Shown: one piece after another, positions 5,215 through 60,238 of the stretch
Layout of the letters: every line of letters begins with the position of its first letter
How positions within the stretch are numbered: the stretch's first letter is position 1
DNA from: a virus
Lineage: Duplodnaviria; Caudoviricetes
DNA length: 64,000 nucleotides
Strand: one strand, 5' to 3'
IMG/VR virus record: IMGVR_UViG_2595698964_000001
Span: 32,001 to 96,000 of that record
Program-made: the position numbers and the translations under genes
The notes under the pieces: model-generated
Databases searched by the model: none
Seen by the model: only the letters and a program-made list of their open reading frames with translations
What the model was told of the DNA's origin: nothing

Positions 5215-5640
5215 ATGAGAACTGATTGGAATACTTATTTTATGGAGATCGCAAACGCAGTGAAAACTAGGTCAACGTGTGAACGACTTAACGTAGGTTG
5301 TGTATTAACAAAAGATAACAGAATAATAGCCACAGGGTATAACGGAAGTATATCTGGTCACCCTCATTGTGACGAAGACGGGATTGGTCACCTTATGTAT
5401 GAGAATGGTTGTAAGCGGACTATCCACGCAGAGCTAAACGCGTTGTTACAATGCGCTAAAAACGGCATAGCTACTAACGGGGCGACGGCTTATGTAACTC
5501 ACTATCCTTGCCCAGATTGTATGAAGGCTTTGAATCAAGCAGGGATTAAGAAGGTTTATTACAATGAGTACTATCCGCATAGGTATCGTAATGAATTTGA
5601 CTACGGAATCGAACTATTTTCATTAAAGGAGGGCAAATAA
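5215..5640 (+). CDS. comEB: dCMP deaminase (ComEB-like)
   Basis: RSTC, ATGYNG, IHAELNAL and HYPCPDC zinc-deaminase motifs; GGAGG RBS before ATG 5215. Confidence 0.92.
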   Translation: MRTDWNTYFMEIANAVKTRSTCERLNVGCVLTKDNRIIATGYNGSISGHPHCDEDGIGHLMYENGCKRTIHAELNALLQCAKNGIATNGATAYVTHYPCPDCMKALNQAGIKKVYYNEYYPHRYRNEFDYGIELFSLKEGK

Positions 5641-5642
5641 AG

Positions 5643-6197
5643 TTGAAATCTAACAAAGTATACGTAGGACAAGGACGTGATTGTTTTACTGTCTACGTAA
5701 AAACTACAGAAGGTCTCGAGTACGTTGGTAGTGTAAAGGACAAAGAAGAGGCAATAAGAGTAAAAGAACGTCTCGCTGAGGGCACTGAATCTTACGAGTT
5801 TATTAAAAAGGAGCTTAGAAAAAGAGGGACTAAGAGGTCAACAACAGGACACAGAAATATATCTTGGAATCGTAAACAACTCTGTTATATTGTTAGTGTT
5901 AGAGGAGAGTATGTTGGGTTTACGAGAGAGCTTGACGAGGCAGTACGTATGAGGGACGCTTACCTTTCAAGCGGTGAAAAACCAGCTTGTAAGAAAAATC
6001 GTAATGGCGTATATGCGTATGAGGTAAAAAATGGATGGGTCATATGGTACAGAATGATTGTAGCCGGGACTCCAAAGAACCAATATGTTGGTCTAGTTGC
6101 GACCAAATCTGAAGCCGAACAAGTGAGAGAGGAACTTTTGAGTGGGGGAGACTACGAGACTATAAAAGAGAAGCTAAAAAATGAAAGAGGGCATTAG
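5643..6197 (+). CDS. Protein with three tandem AP2-like repeats
   Basis: Three repeats of YVG...(D/E/S)EA..R, e.g. TGHRNISWNRK...YVGFTRELDEAVRMRD. Confidence 0.6.
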   Translation: MKSNKVYVGQGRDCFTVYVKTTEGLEYVGSVKDKEEAIRVKERLAEGTESYEFIKKELRKRGTKRSTTGHRNISWNRKQLCYIVSVRGEYVGFTRELDEAVRMRDAYLSSGEKPACKKNRNGVYAYEVKNGWVIWYRMIVAGTPKNQYVGLVATKSEAEQVREELLSGGDYETIKEKLKNERGH

Positions 6198-6376
6198 CCC
6201 TCTTTCTTCGCCTCCCAAATCATCGGATATGAAGTATGCAAAATCCTTCCTTGTCCATCAAATAGAAACGTTTTTTCTTTCCAGCTGTCACAAGCGTTAG
6301 CTGTTGCCATTTTCGCGGTAATTAAATCCGTTTCGATAATCTCCTCATGCGTTTTCGATGCGATTTTATAAACCAT
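6194..6376 (-). CDS. Hypothetical protein
   Basis: GGAGGG RBS before ATG 6376 (MVYKIASK...). Confidence 0.65.
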   Translation of the reverse strand: MVYKIASKTHEEIIETDLITAKMATANACDSWKEKTFLFDGQGRILHTSYPMIWEAKKEG

Positions 6377-6377
6377 T

Positions 6378-6530
6378 TTATTCGCCCTCCGCTTTCTCAA
6401 TTGATAATACTTCGATATTCAAAAACGTAGGCTGTTTTCTCCACTGTTCAAACGCCCTCATACTTTTGAACCTGCTGACAGATTTATTGCCTTTTGCATA
6501 CCAACTTTGGCGCCACGTTACACGAATCAT
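6378..6530 (-). CDS. Small hypothetical protein (50 aa, not in the ORF track)
   Basis: Read by eye as MIRVTWRQSWYAKGNK...KAEGE*; RBS upstream; fills the gap between its neighbours exactly. Confidence 0.65.
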   Translation of the reverse strand: MIRVTWRQSWYAKGNKSVSRFKSMRAFEQWRKQPTFLNIEVLSIEKAEGE

Positions 6531-6531
6531 C

Positions 6532-6768
6532 CTATTCACCCTCCCCTTGCACAATTTTTCTTAATTGTTCCCATGCTCCAAACTCGCTTGTATCGTAGAC
6601 GGTTATTTTAGGACTTAGCAATTCTTGGTGATATAAATTCAGGAGCATGAAGTTGAACTCCTTAATTGATGTAGGTATCTTTTTATTGTTCCACTCGATT
6701 TCGATTGTTGCCCCTGTAGGTATTTCACTATTTAATGTCCATCCTTTAATTGCTGTCGGTATTTCCAT
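6532..6768 (-). CDS. Hypothetical protein
   Basis: GGAGGG RBS; tightly packed operon. Confidence 0.7.
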   Translation of the reverse strand: MEIPTAIKGWTLNSEIPTGATIEIEWNNKKIPTSIKEFNFMLLNLYHQELLSPKITVYDTSEFGAWEQLRKIVQGEGE

Positions 6769-6769
6769 T

Positions 6770-7270
6770 TTATTTGCCCTCCTCTTTTTCGATAGTGCGC
6801 TTTAACGTTTCCTCTAACAACTCTGCGCCTTTGAAGTTTCCTTCTTCTTTAGCTCTCTTGATTGACATTTCCAAGGCTTTGATTGTTGTTTCGATCGTTG
6901 CCTTTTGTGGCTCCTTTTTCTCTCCGCCATTAACTTTAACGATTTGTATTGAGTTGATATGATTAAACTCTGGGTGTGTTTCCTCGATGTTTAGAATCTT
7001 TCTTGTATTTTCGTTTTGTTCTCCCCAGCTTCTCAGTGCTTTGTCGGCATCCTTTAACGTTTTGTGATAAGAAACTTGCAACTTAGTAGTCCCTAAATCA
7101 ACAAACTTTTTGTTTTCGTCTCTGCCATAGTCATTGAACTCGATTACCACCACATATTTGTAATCATTTACTTTTGAGTTTCTTGTTTTTGTTTTTCCGT
7201 TGAATGATACTGAGTAAAGTGTTTTTCCGTTCTTTTCTGTTGCTGTTACTACTGGTTTCTGTTTTTTCAT
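6770..7270 (-). CDS. Hypothetical protein
   Basis: GAGGAGG RBS; 166-aa ORF. Confidence 0.75.
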   Translation of the reverse strand: MKKQKPVVTATEKNGKTLYSVSFNGKTKTRNSKVNDYKYVVVIEFNDYGRDENKKFVDLGTTKLQVSYHKTLKDADKALRSWGEQNENTRKILNIEETHPEFNHINSIQIVKVNGGEKKEPQKATIETTIKALEMSIKRAKEEGNFKGAELLEETLKRTIEKEEGK

Positions 7271-7306
7271 TTTGATTTCCTCCTCGTAATGGTTGGTTGT
7301 ATAAGC

Positions 7307-7453
7307 TTAAGCTACTTCGCCAATTTGTTTTTTGTACATTGAGAGCTTCCACTCGAGCATCATCGTTTGCATTTCGTCTAAGTTACCAGTAGTAAGTTCG
7401 TTAGTTACCTCTTTGATTTTACCTTCGATAGTGTTGATTTCAACTTTTGTCAT
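7307..7453 (-). CDS. Small hypothetical protein (48 aa, not in the ORF track)
   Basis: MTKVEINTIEGK...IGEVA*; AAAGGAG RBS; directly after a promoter. Confidence 0.7.
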   Translation of the reverse strand: MTKVEINTIEGKIKEVTNELTTGNLDEMQTMMLEWKLSMYKKQIGEVA

Positions 7454-7504
7454 CTAAATCGTCTCCTTTTTAACTCTGATTTAGTGTTTCTCGCTTACAA
7501 GTTA

Positions 7505-7533
7505 ATCATACTACGTAGTGTACCACTTAGCAA
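7505..7533 (-). promoter_or_regulatory. sigmaA-type early promoter (leftward)
   Basis: TTGCTA-N17-TATGAT with AT-rich upstream sequence. Confidence 0.65.
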
Positions 7534-7585
7534 GTGCTTTTTGTAACATTTTTGAATTTTATTTCATAACAAGAGAAGAGCCCTG

Positions 7586-7864
7586 TTACACAACGGGCTC
7601 TTCCTTAATTCTTTCGTATTCGTCAAGAGTGATTATAGTCCAACCAAGTACTCTTAGTGCTATCTCAAGAGTTGTTTGGCTTGTTGAGTTCTCAAACAAC
7701 GAGGGAGAACCATTGAAGGGCTCTTTTGATATGTACATAACATCTCCAGATATCGCGTCGTAAGAATGAACCCAACCTTCTGAGTAGAGACGGCCAAAAA
7801 GCTTGAAGTCTTCAGCTCTTGTGTTAACATCTTCAAACAAACCTATTGCAATCATTGTACCCAT
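7586..7864 (-). CDS. Hypothetical protein
   Basis: AAAGGAGTGG RBS before ATG 7864. Confidence 0.7.
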   Translation of the reverse strand: MGTMIAIGLFEDVNTRAEDFKLFGRLYSEGWVHSYDAISGDVMYISKEPFNGSPSLFENSTSQTTLEIALRVLGWTIITLDEYERIKEEPVV

Positions 7865-7972
7865 TGAAACCACTCCTTTAATTGTTTTAACATACTTTAT
7901 TTTATAGTACGTTCTAAAGGAAAGCAAGAAAAAGTCCACTTACCAGTTATCTCTATATAATGCAATTAATTC

Positions 7973-8002
7973 TTGACTAGTCCTAAGCTAATAGGTTATA
8001 AT
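7973..8002 (+). promoter_or_regulatory. sigmaA-type promoter of the candidate sRNA
   Basis: TTGACT-N18-TATAAT. Confidence 0.75.
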
Positions 8003-8007
8003 TCCTG

Positions 8008-8062
8008 TACGGAGTAGTTATGTCAAGCCCGATTTGAGGTTCTGAAAAGAACCTCATTTTTT
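8008..8062 (+). ncRNA. Candidate trans-acting small RNA (~55 nt)
   Basis: Promoter immediately upstream and a GAAA-tetraloop terminator at the 3' end; 8008-8024 is the exact reverse complement of 9686-9702. Confidence 0.65.
8035..8062 (+). terminator. Intrinsic terminator
   Basis: TGAGGTTCT-GAAA-AGAACCTCA-TTTTTT. Confidence 0.9.
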
Positions 8063-8166
8063 ATTGAACTTTTTCAAAATGTATTTGACGAGTACATTCG
8101 AGCTATAGTATGTTATTGCTAACAAATAAACAGTGCGTTCTTAACGCCAAAGGGGAGTTTAAAATT

Positions 8167-8589
8167 ATGAAAAAGAAAGTTATTGCGTTAACACTCGCGT
8201 CAGGAGTCGTATTAGGGTCAACAGCAACATACGCGGCGACTAACTGGTTCAGTAGTTTACTAGACAAGTCCGTGAGTGAAGTCAACTCTGTCGTTCCTGA
8301 CAAAGACTATGAAGCGATCTTCCAGAAGGAAGTTGACGCCGCGAAGGAAACAGTACAAGATGAAGTTGGCGATCTTACTGAGGAGCAAAAGCAAAACGTC
8401 AAAGCAGAAATCAAATATCACGAGGATCAAAGAATCTCTGAGATTAAAGAGAAATTTGTAGGGTCTAGTATTAAAACGGCTAGACAAACGTTAACTAAAG
8501 CTGGCGGCGAAGCTCAACAGAAAGCGGAACAAAAAATTGACGAGGCGTATAACAAGGTATTAGCAAATAACGGGTTAAGTTCTAAGTAA
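8167..8589 (+). CDS. Secreted helical protein of unknown function
   Basis: Sec signal MKKKVIALTLASGVVLGSTATYA; GGGGAG RBS; TTGACG-type promoter near 8085. Confidence 0.75.
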   Translation: MKKKVIALTLASGVVLGSTATYAATNWFSSLLDKSVSEVNSVVPDKDYEAIFQKEVDAAKETVQDEVGDLTEEQKQNVKAEIKYHEDQRISEIKEKFVGSSIKTARQTLTKAGGEAQQKAEQKIDEAYNKVLANNGLSSK

Positions 8590-8634
8590 ACGAGCATACT
8601 ATGCTTAACCTCGCTTAATGCATCACCACGCTAC

Positions 8635-8663
8635 CGCGGCTCAGTTGAGTCGCGTTTTATTTT
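8635..8663 (+). terminator. Intrinsic terminator
   Basis: CGCGGCTCA-GT-TGAGTCGCG followed by a T-rich run. Confidence 0.65.
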
Positions 8664-8723
8664 GTACCCTTATTATGTTTATATTAAACTAGTAACGAAT
8701 TACTATCATCGGAGGTAGCTTAT

Positions 8724-8954
8724 ATGAGAGACTCAAGAAATTTGAAGATAAAGTTCTTTAGTTCAAACGGTATGTCAGTCGAGGCTTTAGAATCTCTTGA
8801 AAAAGATGTTAACGACTTCTGTTGTTCTCCAGATGTCACACCAATAAATTTGAAGTCATTCCCTATTAGCGAACAAGGCGAGACTAAGTTTGTATCTCAA
8901 ATTATATATGAAGAGCGCATGGAACCTAGGTTCCGACAAGTTACGAGTGTTTGA
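8724..8954 (+). CDS. Hypothetical protein
   Basis: GGAGG RBS; followed by a palindromic terminator at 8967-8996. Confidence 0.7.
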   Translation: MRDSRNLKIKFFSSNGMSVEALESLEKDVNDFCCSPDVTPINLKSFPISEQGETKFVSQIIYEERMEPRFRQVTSV

Positions 8955-9064
8955 ATGCGTAAAACGAAGAGAGTCATATGACTCTCTTTTTCTTTTATAA
9001 ACTTATTCAAAGAGAAGCTATTGGAGATTGTTGTTATAAATACATTAAAGGCGGTGTATCATAA

Positions 9065-9634
9065 ATGACAGTTATCATTAAGAACAACGTTAACGGACTT
9101 ACAAAAGAAATTGAAAACGACATACAAACTATGATGCTAGCGGTTGACTATTTTGTATGTTCTCTATATACTGGTGGGAGCTTTGATGAGGTTAACGATT
9201 TTTCAATAATAGATGGCGGTGCTGAGAGAAAGTTAGCTGACGACGTAGATTTTGTAAAAGAGTACAAGGAGTATGTAAAGCGGTTACCAGAACGGAATAT
9301 ACAAACACACTCGTTGAGAAAGCTGGAAACTCAAACCAACGACTTGGTCACAGGATTCGTGAAAACCGTTACCTTCGTCTCAACAACTTACTTGAGTGAC
9401 GATGAGAAAAAAGCTGTAAACAGTGTCCTTAAAAATAGACTACAAGACCTTCAAAATTATCAACAACTAAAAACGGAGGCTGTGCGGAGGGTTACCGAAC
9501 TAAATTCAAAACAAAGTGGATTGATACAGGCCATTCAATATGTAGGTAGTAACATGTCAGACTCAACTTTTCGGGATGCGGTAGTTGATGCGGTCGTAGC
9601 TAAATTTATAGAAGCGACTAAAAATCAACAATAA
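9065..9634 (+). CDS. Hypothetical protein
   Basis: 189-aa ORF with AAGGCGGTG RBS. Confidence 0.75.
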   Translation: MTVIIKNNVNGLTKEIENDIQTMMLAVDYFVCSLYTGGSFDEVNDFSIIDGGAERKLADDVDFVKEYKEYVKRLPERNIQTHSLRKLETQTNDLVTGFVKTVTFVSTTYLSDDEKKAVNSVLKNRLQDLQNYQQLKTEAVRRVTELNSKQSGLIQAIQYVGSNMSDSTFRDAVVDAVVAKFIEATKNQQ

Positions 9635-9685
9635 TGTTTATTTGTTACAAGGATAATACGCTTGTGCGCCGAATAACATGGTATG

Positions 9686-9722
9686 GACATAACTACTCCG
9701 TATACAAAGAAATGGGGTGGTT
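9686..9722 (+). promoter_or_regulatory. RBS-sequestering leader hairpin and target site of the candidate sRNA
   Basis: 9691-9701 AACTACTCCGT pairs with 9712-9722 ATGGGGTGGTT (11 bp, 3 G-U), covering the GGGGTGG SD. Confidence 0.6.
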
Positions 9723-9724
9723 TA

Positions 9725-10057
9725 TTGAAGAGTAAGAAAGCGAAAATACTTCTTGGTTGTCTCGCTGTTGTTGCTTGTTACATCTTTTATGCTACCGTTA
9801 CTTTCGAAAAGAGAGACGCAGAACGCGTCGCAAAAGAATTTATTGAAGATCGTCTTTATGCTCCTAGTACGATAGAGTACATTGGAGACCCAGCCGTAAC
9901 AAAAATAAAGAAACACACTTACAGAGTCGAGGGAGAATTTGACGCTCAAAACAAGTTCGGAGCTACTATGCGAGGGAGTTATGACCTAGAGATTACTCTT
10001 GACAAAAAGGAAAACGAGTGGACATTACTCTACATCAATATTTTGGATCGACAATAA
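9725..10057 (+). CDS. Membrane-anchored extracytoplasmic protein
   Basis: TTG start after GGGGTGG (alternative in-frame ATG at 9683 lacks an SD); basic N-terminus, one TM helix, then an APST...VDAQN-FGA-like domain. Confidence 0.75.
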   Translation: MKSKKAKILLGCLAVVACYIFYATVTFEKRDAERVAKEFIEDRLYAPSTIEYIGDPAVTKIKKHTYRVEGEFDAQNKFGATMRGSYDLEITLDKKENEWTLLYINILDRQ

Positions 10058-10063
10058 ACATAC

Positions 10064-10092
10064 TTGTAAACTGAGTCTCTTTCGGTTATACT
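10064..10092 (+). promoter_or_regulatory. sigmaA-type promoter
   Basis: TTGTAA-N17-TATACT. Confidence 0.6.
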
Positions 10093-10115
10093 AAAGAGGA
10101 ACTAATAACTGGAAG

Positions 10116-10301
10116 GTGGACAAATTTATGAAAAACGCGAATGAATTCGAGAGCTTTTTGGAGGATGTCTTGCTCGAGAGTGACAAAATTGACTCAGTGG
10201 GGACTTTTGATGACGAGAGAATTAGTAGTAAACACAACGGTCTGGTAGTCGTATTTGAAGATGGCGTTGAATATAAAATAACCATAGAAAGACATAAATA
10301 G
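10116..10301 (+). CDS. Small acidic hypothetical protein
   Basis: Lies between a promoter and the terminator at 10312-10340. Confidence 0.7.
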   Translation: MDKFMKNANEFESFLEDVLLESDKIDSVGTFDDERISSKHNGLVVVFEDGVEYKITIERHK

Positions 10302-10401
10302 TTTAACTTTGAAGAAGTCCTCCGGGACTTCTTTTTTATTGCGTAAGCGTAAACTTTGAATAACTGGACTTTATTTGTTAAAACCAAAAGGAGGGGTTAC
10401 A

Positions 10402-11031
10402 ATGGCGTTGAAAGAACAACATGATTTGTTAGAACGTTTCCTTGACCCTGTTCTAGGTGTAAAAGGAGAGGCGAAGACACTGCTGGCGTTTGTTGGGTAT
10501 AAGAAGGAGCTTTCTGAAAGAGCTTTTCTAGTTACAGAGTTCGATACGAAATATGTAAATGGTAACGACGTAATTGTTATTGGATTAGAAAAAGGTTCAG
10601 AAAAACTCTTTGCTTGGAAGAATGTAGACGGTGTAGGAAGTAAAACAGTAAGAACATCAAAAACAGTTAGAAAGTGGTTAAACAGCGTAATATCTGATCC
10701 GTTTAGTGAGGTTGTTATCTATGTTGTTGTCTCAAACGTGACCTACAACGAATATCAAAATATGATGACTCCTCGCAAAGTTGAATATGAGTTACTCCAA
10801 AATCGGGATTCGCCGCGCATTGACGCTTTATTAAAGATCATTGATTATCGTGTACAAATAAAGAGACTCCAAGAGCGAGTTGATAGAGCTCTCGACGAGC
10901 GGGATGAGACTAAGTTTAAAGCTGTTGCGGAAGAGCTAAGGTTATTTGAAGAAAGTATACCTAATCATGTAAGGGACGAAGTTTTCAACATAAAAGGGGT
11001 GAAAAGAAAAGTTGAAACGACGAAACATTGA
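10402..11031 (+). CDS. Protein with a C-terminal IDEAL-like domain
   Basis: RVDRALDERDETKFKAVAEEL resembles the IDEAL motif; GGAGGGG RBS. Confidence 0.65.
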   Translation: MALKEQHDLLERFLDPVLGVKGEAKTLLAFVGYKKELSERAFLVTEFDTKYVNGNDVIVIGLEKGSEKLFAWKNVDGVGSKTVRTSKTVRKWLNSVISDPFSEVVIYVVVSNVTYNEYQNMMTPRKVEYELLQNRDSPRIDALLKIIDYRVQIKRLQERVDRALDERDETKFKAVAEELRLFEESIPNHVRDEVFNIKGVKRKVETTKH

Positions 11032-11206
11032 GGTTACGTATGTTTACGAGGAAAACGGGAGAGAGGTTTACAAAAACACTCTCACTTTAAAAAGGATTCT
11101 TAAGGGCGAGGACTTAACAGCCGGGATGTGTTTTAAAAAGAAGAGACCAAGACTTAGCAGAGGTGTAAACAATGTGGAAAGAAAAACAAGTGCAGGTAGT
11201 AACTGA
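11012..11206 (+). CDS. Hypothetical protein
   Basis: Fills the gap between neighbours; weak RBS. Confidence 0.45.
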   Translation: MKRRNIEVTYVYEENGREVYKNTLTLKRILKGEDLTAGMCFKKKRPRLSRGVNNVERKTSAGSN

Positions 11207-11618
11207 AACCACTGACAAATTCAATGTTAGATATGTAGAGGAAGAATCTGGTTGTAAGTGTTTAACAATTTTAGACAACAAGGCGGAGCTAAATAAATTA
11301 CTATCTGACTTTAGGGACAGAAAAACAATAGCAGTAGTCACCAAGGACTATTTTACGGGACGCAAGTCTAGAGAGATGGTCAAAGTCACTTCAGTAAAAG
11401 TGTCGAGAGTTAGCTCTGTCAAGTCAATTGCAACACGTAAGATGATGCTTCCAGCTTATTTTAAAGAAGATGGATTAAAGATAGACGCTAAAAATGTAGA
11501 CCTCGTTGAGTACTTAGTATCATTCGCTATGGCTATGGATCATCTTATGGGAAGAGGACTCCAGACAGACATGGACAAGTTAATTAAAACGATTGAAGAA
11601 GCGTTTATTCATTTTTAG
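11172..11618 (+). CDS. Hypothetical protein
   Basis: GAGGTG RBS; followed by a terminator at 11632-11660. Confidence 0.7.
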   Translation: MWKEKQVQVVTETTDKFNVRYVEEESGCKCLTILDNKAELNKLLSDFRDRKTIAVVTKDYFTGRKSREMVKVTSVKVSRVSSVKSIATRKMMLPAYFKEDGLKIDAKNVDLVEYLVSFAMAMDHLMGRGLQTDMDKLIKTIEEAFIHF

Positions 11619-11671
11619 AGATATGCTACATTAAAGGGTACTGGAAACAGTGCTCTTTTACATTATTCTTC

Positions 11672-11700
11672 TTGACTTCGGTCTAAAGATATAATACAAT
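11672..11700 (+). promoter_or_regulatory. sigmaA-type promoter
   Basis: TTGACT-N17-TACAAT. Confidence 0.65.
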
Positions 11701-11735
11701 AGACCTGAGTAAAAATACACTTGGGAGATGATACT

Positions 11736-12233
11736 ATGTTATTAACATGCGACTATGCGAGAGCGATCATTCAAAATACAGAAGGGCAACTACTCGTAGG
11801 CTTACGTAAAAACAACTTGAGCGTGCCACTCTGGGAGTTCCCGGGAGTAATGCTAAACAGCGCTATTGACCTCAAAACGCCTATTCAAACAATAGTCATA
11901 CAAGAAATCCTTGGAGTTCAAGACGGTGATAGAGTCAGTGTTAAGGTTAACCCTACATATCATAACATCATTGAACACTCTATTGAAGATAGCAACGCGA
12001 CGATTATGATGTCAACTAGCTTCTACAGCTGCTTTGTAACGACAGAGTTTGAGAATGCTATCGAGTCTGAAACATACAAAACACTCATTTGGATAGACAA
12101 ATCCGATGTGTCTTCGTTAAACTTTACTAAACCTCATGATAGTACGTTATTTAAAATCCTAAACAAAGCGCTAACTGTTAAGGACTTGAATAAACTAACG
12201 GAGGATGACAAATGGACAATAAAGCAAATATAG
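11736..12233 (+). CDS. Nudix-fold (MutT-like) protein with a degenerate Nudix box
   Basis: ARAIIQNTEGQLLVGLR...LWEFPG start of the fold; the canonical REUXEE catalytic box is absent. Confidence 0.55.
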   Translation: MLLTCDYARAIIQNTEGQLLVGLRKNNLSVPLWEFPGVMLNSAIDLKTPIQTIVIQEILGVQDGDRVSVKVNPTYHNIIEHSIEDSNATIMMSTSFYSCFVTTEFENAIESETYKTLIWIDKSDVSSLNFTKPHDSTLFKILNKALTVKDLNKLTEDDKWTIKQI

Positions 12234-23788: not shown

Positions 23789-23884
23789 ACAGGAGATATT
23801 TTCCTGTCTCATACATAATTTTTACTCATTGTAACGCAAAAAACATGTAACTAGACCAGTTAGCAATTGGTTTACATTGAAACG

Positions 23885-24034
23885 CATGCGTAATTTTTAC
23901 GTCAGAATACATAAATGTATTATATATTAATAATATATACAACATGTTATATAAATATATGCAGAGGGCTTTGGTTGTCCTCTAGCATATTATTTAAATT
24001 AGTTATTTGCTTCGCAAATATGTCTATCGACTGG
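23885..24034 (+). repeat. 150-bp structured non-coding element, copy 1
   Basis: Shares a 36-bp identical block and conserved hairpins with 60089-60238. Confidence 0.9.
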
Positions 24035-60088: not shown

Positions 60089-60238
60089 CATGCGTAATTT
60101 TTACGTCAGAATACATAAATGTATATAACATATAATACAAGTATTTATATAAATATATGCAGAGATTCGTGTCAGTTCTCTAGCATATAATTTTAGTTTA
60201 GTATTTGCTCCGCAAATATGTCTCTACATAGAGACTGG
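60089..60238 (+). repeat. 150-bp structured non-coding element, copy 2
   Basis: Same 36-bp block and hairpin series as 23885-24034. Confidence 0.9.

Follow-up and report, generated by a model that had tools for sequence, protein, structure and literature searches.

The window analysed here is a stretch of 64,000 nucleotides (nt), bases 32001-96000 of the 143,986-base virus record IMGVR_UViG_2595698964_000001, and its source is a lytic, SPO1-like phage (Herelleviridae) of Bacillus subtilis. Between positions 7973 and 10057 of the window lie a short promoter-terminator unit, which is predicted to give rise to a small non-coding RNA, and, 1.7 kb away on the same strand, a gene for a putative membrane protein whose Shine-Dalgarno (SD) sequence is predicted to be buried in a leader hairpin. 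An earlier reading of the letters alone (the sequence-only reading) had proposed that the 5' end of the RNA pairs with one arm of this hairpin and thereby switches on translation of the gene. The features on which the proposal depends are the following.

7973-8002, plus strand: promoter P1, with TTGACT (7973-7978), an 18-nt spacer and TATAAT (7997-8002), matching the sigma-A consensus at 11/12 positions
8009-8062, plus strand: predicted 54-nt small RNA, with a 16-nt 5' seed, a 10-nt linker, a 9-bp terminator with a GAAA loop, and a U tract
8008-8024, plus strand: seed 17-mer TACGGAGTAGTTATGTC, exact reverse complement of 9686-9702
8035-8062, plus strand: predicted intrinsic terminator T1, stem 8035-8043 with 8048-8056, GAAA loop, T tract to 8062
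9686-9702, plus strand: target site GACATAACTACTCCGTA, whose first 5 nt (9686-9690) are the toehold, followed by the hairpin's 5' arm (9691-9701) and one last nt
9691-9722, plus strand: predicted leader hairpin of 11 bp (3 of them G-U) with a 10-nt loop, the 3' arm of which is the SD
9714-9722, plus strand: SD GGGGTGGTT, 9 nt, with 7 nt from its GG core to the start codon
9725-10057, plus strand: target gene with a TTG start, 110 amino acids (aa), predicted N-terminal membrane helix and alpha+beta domain (phrog_13160)

Promoters and terminators were assigned by consensus scans, and in a scan of the entire genome P1 is one of only two promoters that reach 11/12 matches to the sigma-A consensus. 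It is the only one of this quality to be followed by a terminator within 160 nt; three weaker candidates of this kind, at 10/12, are found. T1 has the sequence TGAGGTTCT-GAAA-AGAACCTCA at 8035-8056, followed by TTTTTTATTG. Both the near-consensus promoter and the unit of about 55 nt ending in a GAAA-tetraloop terminator were present as the sequence-only reading had described them, the predicted RNA having a length of about 54 nt. That reading had put the 5' end of the RNA at 8008; the 17-mer that begins there is exact, but the spacing rule from the -10 element would place the start at A8009 rather than at T8008. The 54-nt RNA has a predicted minimum free energy of -16.4 kcal/mol (z -3.61, with 2/200 shuffles as stable), and in the fold ensemble of the RNA on its own the seed is mostly unpaired. 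When the covariance models of Rfam 15 were run over positions 6000-12000 on both strands, with E values up to 1 allowed, only a chance-level microRNA match elsewhere was returned.

The complementarity itself was reproduced exactly, 8008-8024 being the 17-nt reverse complement of 9686-9702 as had been claimed. No copies of the 17-mer other than these two are found in the window at up to 3 mismatches, or in the 143,986-base genome at up to 2. They form the longest exact inverted pair of the window, but this pair lies in the tail of a continuous distribution: exact inverted repeats of at least 17 nt occurred in 15 of 100 dinucleotide-shuffled windows overall, and in 0/100 when the arms were required to lie within 3 kb. 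A second comparison takes the promoter-terminator unit as given, so that the RNA is defined independently, and sets its 26-nt 5' region against 316 initiation regions. Here, none of 3000 shuffles reached a complementarity of at least 15 nt (the maximum, 14, was seen once), against 16 nt for the real RNA counted from the predicted +1. By duplex energy the initiation region at 9725 ranks first among the 316, at -30.1 kcal/mol compared with -23.9 kcal/mol for the next, and none of 20 shuffled seeds attained this value, the best giving -28.6 kcal/mol. It should be noted that part of the match (GGAG versus CTCC, roughly 4-5 of the 17 nt) follows from SD-like content.

The target lies in a leader with the 11-bp hairpin, including three G-U pairs, that had been reported to bury a GGGGTGG SD; pairing of 9691-9701 with 9712-9722 was recovered with a predicted energy of -12.1 kcal/mol. 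The SD was assigned by its pairing with the anti-SD sequence at the 3' end of 16S rRNA. The seed covers the anti-SD arm at 9691-9701, and not the SD or the start codon, and the toehold at 9686-9690 is mostly unpaired (0.64). Cofolding of the RNA with 9640-9760 gave -55.5 kcal/mol, compared with -39.9 kcal/mol for the two separate RNAs, a difference of -15.6 kcal/mol which in these models favours the earlier expectation that the duplex would outcompete the hairpin. The mean probability that the SD is unpaired rises from 0.034 for the leader alone (in a 151-nt context) to 0.396 in the heterodimer ensemble.

Taken together, these features could form a switch. Transcription rightward from P1 early in infection would give a non-coding RNA of about 54 nt (8009-8062), with a free 16-nt 5' seed, which would end at T1. 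The gene at TTG 9725 would come second on an mRNA whose 5' end lies upstream of 9065, with its SD locked in the 11-bp hairpin. The small RNA would dock on the 5-nt single-stranded toehold and then, as 16-17 Watson-Crick pairs form, push the hairpin's 5' arm aside, and the SD freed in this way would allow the 110-aa membrane protein to be translated, that is, anti-antisense activation. What has been observed or computed comprises the sequences themselves, how the RNAs are predicted to fold and with what energies, the fact that the unit is unique, the degree of conservation and the start codon that is favoured; production of the RNA and its termination at T1, an encounter of both RNAs inside the cell, and activation as the outcome are inferred. 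On the models available, trans activation of the 9725 gene by the P1 RNA has a little less than an even chance of being correct. A more ambitious form of the proposal, that this is a natural toehold switch in a strictly lytic Bacillus phage in which one face of P1, the strongest host-type promoter of the phage, emits a 54-nt RNA solely to unlock a membrane protein 1.7 kb away, is put forward more tentatively. Since P1 would, as a symmetric promoter, also fire the leftward operon that begins at ATG 7864, the direction taken by polymerase there would in this form set the ratio of leftward early proteins to unlocked membrane protein, which would amount to a promoter-orientation-coupled RNA timer of a sort not yet described for the Herelleviridae.

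When 7600-10100 was compared with phage sequences by blastn, only 2 of 50,697 records matched, SBSphiC and vB_BsuM-Goe26 (Goe26), both at 89% identity and both Herelleviridae (Spounavirinae) phages of B. subtilis. All three phages are collinear. In a three-way alignment Goe26 and SBSphiC are almost identical across the region, and they therefore amount to only one independent comparison. Positions 7973-8034 show no difference from the relatives in 62 nt (P1, 0/30; the seed is identical), and T1 has a single difference in 28 nt, T8035C, at the outermost pair of its stem. The leader at 9671-9724 differs at 1 (Goe26) or 2 (SBSphiC) of 54 nt, with 1-2 of 32 in the hairpin. For comparison, 11 of the 36 positions of 9635-9670 have changed, and differences amount to 10-18% in other intergenic DNA and 7-15% in coding sequence. 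Judged from these alignments, both elements are conserved islands in the only relatives. A9692G is the sole change in either arm, and the new G can still pair, as G-U, with U8018 in the seed as well as with U9721 in the hairpin, while the second change in SBSphiC, C9705T, falls in the hairpin loop. This pattern fits selection at the RNA level, though it is not a compensatory pair. As regards the expectation that the complementarity would be kept in relatives, the seed is identical and the target still pairs through G-U, but within a single independent lineage and without a compensatory pair. With the sequences of the relatives, the cofolding difference is -9.4 kcal/mol and the hairpin is unchanged at -12.1 kcal/mol.

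Two micro-open reading frames (ORFs) that overlap the seed, and one alternative class of regulator, were considered and set aside. P1-T1 is the sole case in the genome of a strong promoter with a terminator and no ORF: the longest frame within the unit encodes 5 aa and its stop codon is not conserved. The micro-ORF at 8020-8037 on the plus strand, with its ATG inside the 17-mer and GGAG 5 nt before it, reads MSSPI-stop here, but in the relatives, where T8035C abolishes the TGA, its length is 14-15 aa; it was rejected and is probably not a gene. On the minus strand, a micro-ORF of about 20 aa begins at an ATG within the 17-mer, has no promoter and was likewise rejected as a gene. A type I toxin-antitoxin pair, which would combine a small hydrophobic toxin of less than about 60 aa with an adjacent or overlapping antisense RNA that represses it, was ruled out: the target encodes 110 aa with a folded alpha+beta domain, and the two loci lie on one strand, 1.7 kb apart.

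The sign of any regulation depends on which start codon is used, because initiation at ATG 9683 would place the pairing at codons 2-7. ATG 9683 is in frame, and its equivalent is the annotated start in Goe26. An SD of 9 nt at 7-nt spacing precedes TTG 9725, and none precedes ATG 9683. After 9725 the changed codons comprise 22 synonymous and 1 non-synonymous relative to Goe26, and 21 and 1 relative to SBSphiC, whereas in 9683-9724 there are no synonymous changes and 1 (Goe26) or 2 (SBSphiC) non-synonymous ones (Fisher p 0.083 for Goe26 and 0.011 for SBSphiC, two tests that are not independent). The 14-aa extension from ATG 9683 adds nothing to the score against phrog_13160 (124.4 vs 124.7 bits), the alignment starting at the TTG residue, and several distant homologues, 108-115 aa long, enter the alignment with residue 1-4 of their own sequence. 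Initiation at ATG 9683, which the sequence-only reading had recognised as fatal to its proposal, is accordingly disfavoured by the codon patterns and the family alignments, and TTG 9725 is favoured as the start.

The wider transcriptional context adds three features to those listed above.

7998-8026, minus strand: predicted leftward promoter, with TTGACA (8026-8021), a 17-nt spacer and AATTAT (8003-7998), 10/12
8085-8114, plus strand: predicted promoter P2, TTGACG-N18-TATGTT, 9/12, preceding the gene at 8167-8589; the relatives have TTGACT
9065-9634, plus strand: upstream gene of 189 aa, no known family, lying between the terminators at 8966-8989 and 10311-10334 with none between them

The leftward promoter shares its -10 region with P1 and has a predicted start near 7991, 18 bp from that of P1 (8009). 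It is the sole minus-strand promoter-like site predicted between 7865 and 8030, and it would likely serve the leftward operon that starts at ATG 7864. The geometry fits P1 being a sequence-symmetric, bidirectional promoter; in the part of the literature at hand, the starts of bidirectional promoters are most commonly 18 bp apart, and the divergent transcript frequently does not code for protein (PMC10268837). To the right, P2 follows T1, and P1 is thus presumably dispensable for expression of 8167-8589, which encodes a protein with a signal peptide. Terminator-like sites on the plus strand are found at 8035, 8635, 8966 (8966-8989) and 10311 (10311-10334). Between 9211 and 10063 the scans predict neither a sigma-A-like promoter nor a terminator, and 9725 is most likely the second cistron after 9065-9634, co-transcribed with it. 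As nothing of either kind is predicted from the upstream gene to 9725, the target site should be in the mRNA, and an mRNA start downstream of 9702, a further event named at the outset as incompatible with the switch, is not what the sequence predicts.

Two observations concern the DNA just ahead of the leader. Conserved blocks at 9642-9658 and 9667-9687 flank a variable stretch of 8-9 nt, in a pattern that resembles a promoter for a non-sigma-A holoenzyme; no sigma-A match is predicted there, and the block words do not recur upstream of other genes in the genome. We also considered a bridging ORF at 9634-9735 (33 aa), which overlaps the upstream stop in TAATG and ends 8 nt past TTG 9725, and which might melt the hairpin by translational coupling. 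It was rejected as a conserved mechanism because it has no start codon in the relatives, although coupling could still act in this phage.

The target protein matches phrog_13160, a family of unknown function, with an E value of 5.3e-36, its residues 1-107 aligning with positions 19-138 of the 139 in the profile, and the protein belongs to a family of 444 representatives at E up to 0.001. No Pfam family was found, nor did NCBIfam, a PDB sequence profile or the ESM Atlas yield anything of use. An AlphaFold model built on an alignment of 52 sequences (mean predicted local distance difference test score, pLDDT, 89.6) has one long N-terminal helix, forming a membrane segment and stalk, and a four-stranded sheet. 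Foldseek found no PDB match to this model at E up to 0.001; the weak top matches were to the N-terminal region of PBP2a and to NTF2-like and cystatin folds. The model would agree with a membrane-anchored protein of NTF2/cystatin-like fold, as far as such weak top matches can indicate, and the basic N-terminus before the hydrophobic helix suggests that the domain faces outward. The suggestion that the protein acts in superinfection exclusion or receptor masking gained no support from any of this, the family being of unknown function, though superinfection exclusion would be compatible with it.

Several points weigh against activation in trans. As the shuffled windows indicate, a 17-nt inverted repeat is not rare in 64 kb, and the match was picked after the fact. 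The leader hairpin is only modestly better than its shuffles (z -1.76, with 12/200 as stable), and the modelled dimer frees the SD only in part. The relatives supply one independent lineage, with a one-sided change only and no double compensatory change. The seed overlaps the -35 element (8021-8026) and spacer of the leftward promoter, and because of this overlap, and of the constraint likely to act on the P1 initiation region, the conservation of this arm may have other causes. Both partners lie within one early-looking cluster, so that the need for a switch is not obvious. Finally, if ATG 9683 were the true start, pairing at codons 2-7 would repress and not activate.

An unlikely explanation, but one to be taken seriously, dispenses with trans regulation altogether. 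P1 would then be a bidirectional promoter for the leftward operon, possibly with read-through into 8167, the rightward RNA a by-product insulated by T1, and the hairpin an autonomous brake on the second cistron, while the 17-mer would be the relic of an inverted duplication of the leftward -35 element and spacer, each copy being held by its local function. The duplicated segment reads TTGACA-TAACTACTCCGTA in one copy and TGGACA-TAACTACTCCGTA in the other, a similarity that reaches 18/20 nt when the -35 is counted in; the minus-strand TTGACA-N17-AATTAT overlaps the seed, the start spacing and the frequent lack of coding capacity of divergent RNAs are those expected of a bidirectional promoter (from the available part of PMC10268837), and the pairing lacks covariation in the relatives. 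Against this, the rightward half is the better promoter (11/12 versus 10/12); it is equipped with a well-formed terminator and a second promoter comes next, an arrangement that looks like design and not leakage. The copy at 9684 has no usable -10, only AAGAAA, and hence is not a promoter. Similarity between the copies stops sharply at both edges, and promoter spacers usually vary, yet both arms have stayed complementary while nearby intergenic DNA diverged by 10-31%. It is improbable, although the complementarity statistics apply equally, that the RNAs pair with the opposite or another effect, either because RNase III cuts the 16-17-bp duplex and separates or destabilises the second cistron, or because a start at ATG 9683, in frame and annotated in Goe26, is blocked over codons 2-7. 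A duplex of 17 bp is short for RNase III; ATG 9683 is without an SD, 9683-9724 evolves like non-coding RNA and is not homologous to the N-termini of the family, and the pairing site matches the anti-SD arm precisely, as activation predicts. For such cleavage there is a precedent in DsrA-rpoS duplexes, which create an RNase III site according to the portion of that report available (PMC2831331).

The remaining explanations need no contact between the RNAs. Coincidence between unrelated regulatory sequences that both carry SD-related motifs (GGAG versus CTCC) draws on the frequency of repeats of at least 17 nt in shuffled windows, on the choice of the match after the fact and on the 4-5 nt owed to SD/anti-SD content. 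It is very improbable, given that no shuffled window had such a repeat within 3 kb, that none of the 3000 shuffled seeds reached 15 nt, and that both arms lie in conserved non-coding islands. Still less probable is a function at the DNA level, in which the inverted 17-mers would be binding sites for a regulator or recombination sites around the 1.66-kb segment 8025-9685. Two exact inverted copies do bracket three genes, one copy being inside a promoter, but only these two occur in 144 kb and the motif is not itself symmetric, 8025-9685 and its immediate surroundings encode no recombinase, the three phages are collinear, and the A-to-G change of the relatives breaks DNA identity while keeping RNA pairing.

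Searches for further homologues of the pair returned to the same relatives. In tblastn with three proteins of the module, SBSphiC and Goe26 were found again, together with distant, non-syntenic matches in YungSlug and MinS1; the leader of the YungSlug homologue is unrelated to that of the window. Searches by way of the target protein confirmed none of 19 pattern matches in viral contigs and none of 212 in metagenome contigs, DNA patterns built on the promoter-terminator frame, on the SD region and on the terminator had no match in viral, metagenome or genome contigs, and a word-based protein search gave nothing beyond the query's own cluster, in collections that may omit records very close to the window. 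The bare 17-mer is contained in 9 viral contigs, none of them window-like by blastn, and in single copy in each of 8 bacterial or archaeal contigs, none from B. subtilis, which we read as chance. As these 8 do not include B. subtilis and look like chance, there appears to be no perfect host target for the 17-mer among the species representatives.

Elsewhere in the window, a stretch at about 6200-6550 is without counterpart in Goe26 and SBSphiC (identity 0 over 6250-6499 in the three-way alignment) and appears to be a window-specific insertion or replacement of about 330 nt. Other repeats were also seen. A 36-nt exact direct repeat stands beside an 89-nt repeat of 78% identity, in copies at 23873-24025 and 60089-60223, 36.2 kb apart, which consist of AT-rich non-coding DNA with a GC-rich hairpin and look like a repeated regulatory element. 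A 23-nt inverted match (91%) links 5627-5649 with 6761-6783, the SD and start-codon regions of one plus-strand and one minus-strand gene (AGGAGGGCAAATAAA...), as if initiation regions were reused between unrelated genes. The inverted pair I7 (16888, 19532) was considered as a second promoter duplicate and dropped, since both of its arms look coding. Two genes have sub-threshold Pfam matches: 6773-7270 on the minus strand to the Ntox1 RNase-like toxin domain (E 0.0045; 17.7 bits, where the cutoff is 25) and 10375-11028 on the plus strand to the IDEAL domain (E 0.00036; 20.7 bits, where it is 22).

The regulatory RNAs of lytic Gram-positive phages are almost unexplored, and the locus offers a fully specified hypothesis that can be tested cheaply, with one RNA, one target, a perfect seed, a defined hairpin, B. 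subtilis as host and the cultured relatives SBSphiC and Goe26. If true, it would be the first mechanistically defined trans-activating small RNA in the Herelleviridae, and would parallel synthetic toehold switches in a natural setting, perhaps with no need for a chaperone. A refutation would illustrate how bidirectional promoters and duplicated promoter fragments can mimic pairs of small RNA and target in genome scans. In the literature covered, with most subscription journals outside its scope, we found no account of this RNA or of a trans-activating small RNA in SPO1-like or other Herelleviridae phages.

Among designed systems, synthetic toehold switches have a single-stranded 5' toehold followed by a stem that hides the initiation signals and that is opened when a trigger RNA invades it by strand displacement; their loop holds the ribosome-binding site, their stem holds the AUG, and their toeholds are longer. 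In the candidate, by contrast, the SD is the 3' arm, the start codon lies outside the stem and the toehold is 5 nt. DsrA and RprA are host small RNAs with several stem-loops that pair imperfectly and with the assistance of Hfq, whereas the candidate would make a perfect 16-17-nt match at the extreme 5' end of a minimal RNA and has a single evident target. What they share with it, in the available parts of the sources, is that in E. coli they pair with the arm of the rpoS leader that sequesters the ribosome-binding site (PMC3675490, PMC2831331). Symmetric bidirectional promoters resemble P1 in their overlapping -10 elements on opposite strands, predicted starts 18 bp apart and one short non-coding product (PMC10268837, citing Warman et al. 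2021, as far as the accessible text goes), but P1 differs from the typical case in having a near-consensus -35 on both halves, a dedicated terminator and a specific complementary target. Within the Herelleviridae, transcriptomes of the Listeria phage CKA15 (PMC12282133) and the Staphylococcus phages K and 515A1 (PMC10383478) contain highly transcribed, ORF-less loci behind promoters. The portions of these reports available assign them no target or mechanism, the CKA15 loci are without canonical terminators, and sequence likeness to the candidate was not sought.

The sequence-only reading had stated that no such circuit was known for this phage group. That holds for the literature found on the family, but needs softening more generally, since a prophage small RNA that activates translation in trans is in print. 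IsrK, from the Salmonella prophage Gifsy-1, is like the candidate phage-borne and short, and acts in trans to render a translationally inactive phage transcript translatable (PMC4825925, from the part of the paper available). It differs, on the same partial text, in that IsrK acts on the read-through isoform of the gene that encodes it, that the prophage is temperate and enterobacterial, and that its effect leads to an antiterminator. For the candidate, 1.7 kb and three terminators separate the RNA from its target, the phage is a lytic one of Gram-positive bacteria, there is no sequence relationship to IsrK, and the candidate is known here from sequence. By analogy with IsrK and DsrA, it is credible that the P1 RNA belongs to a known type of mechanism, anti-antisense activation.

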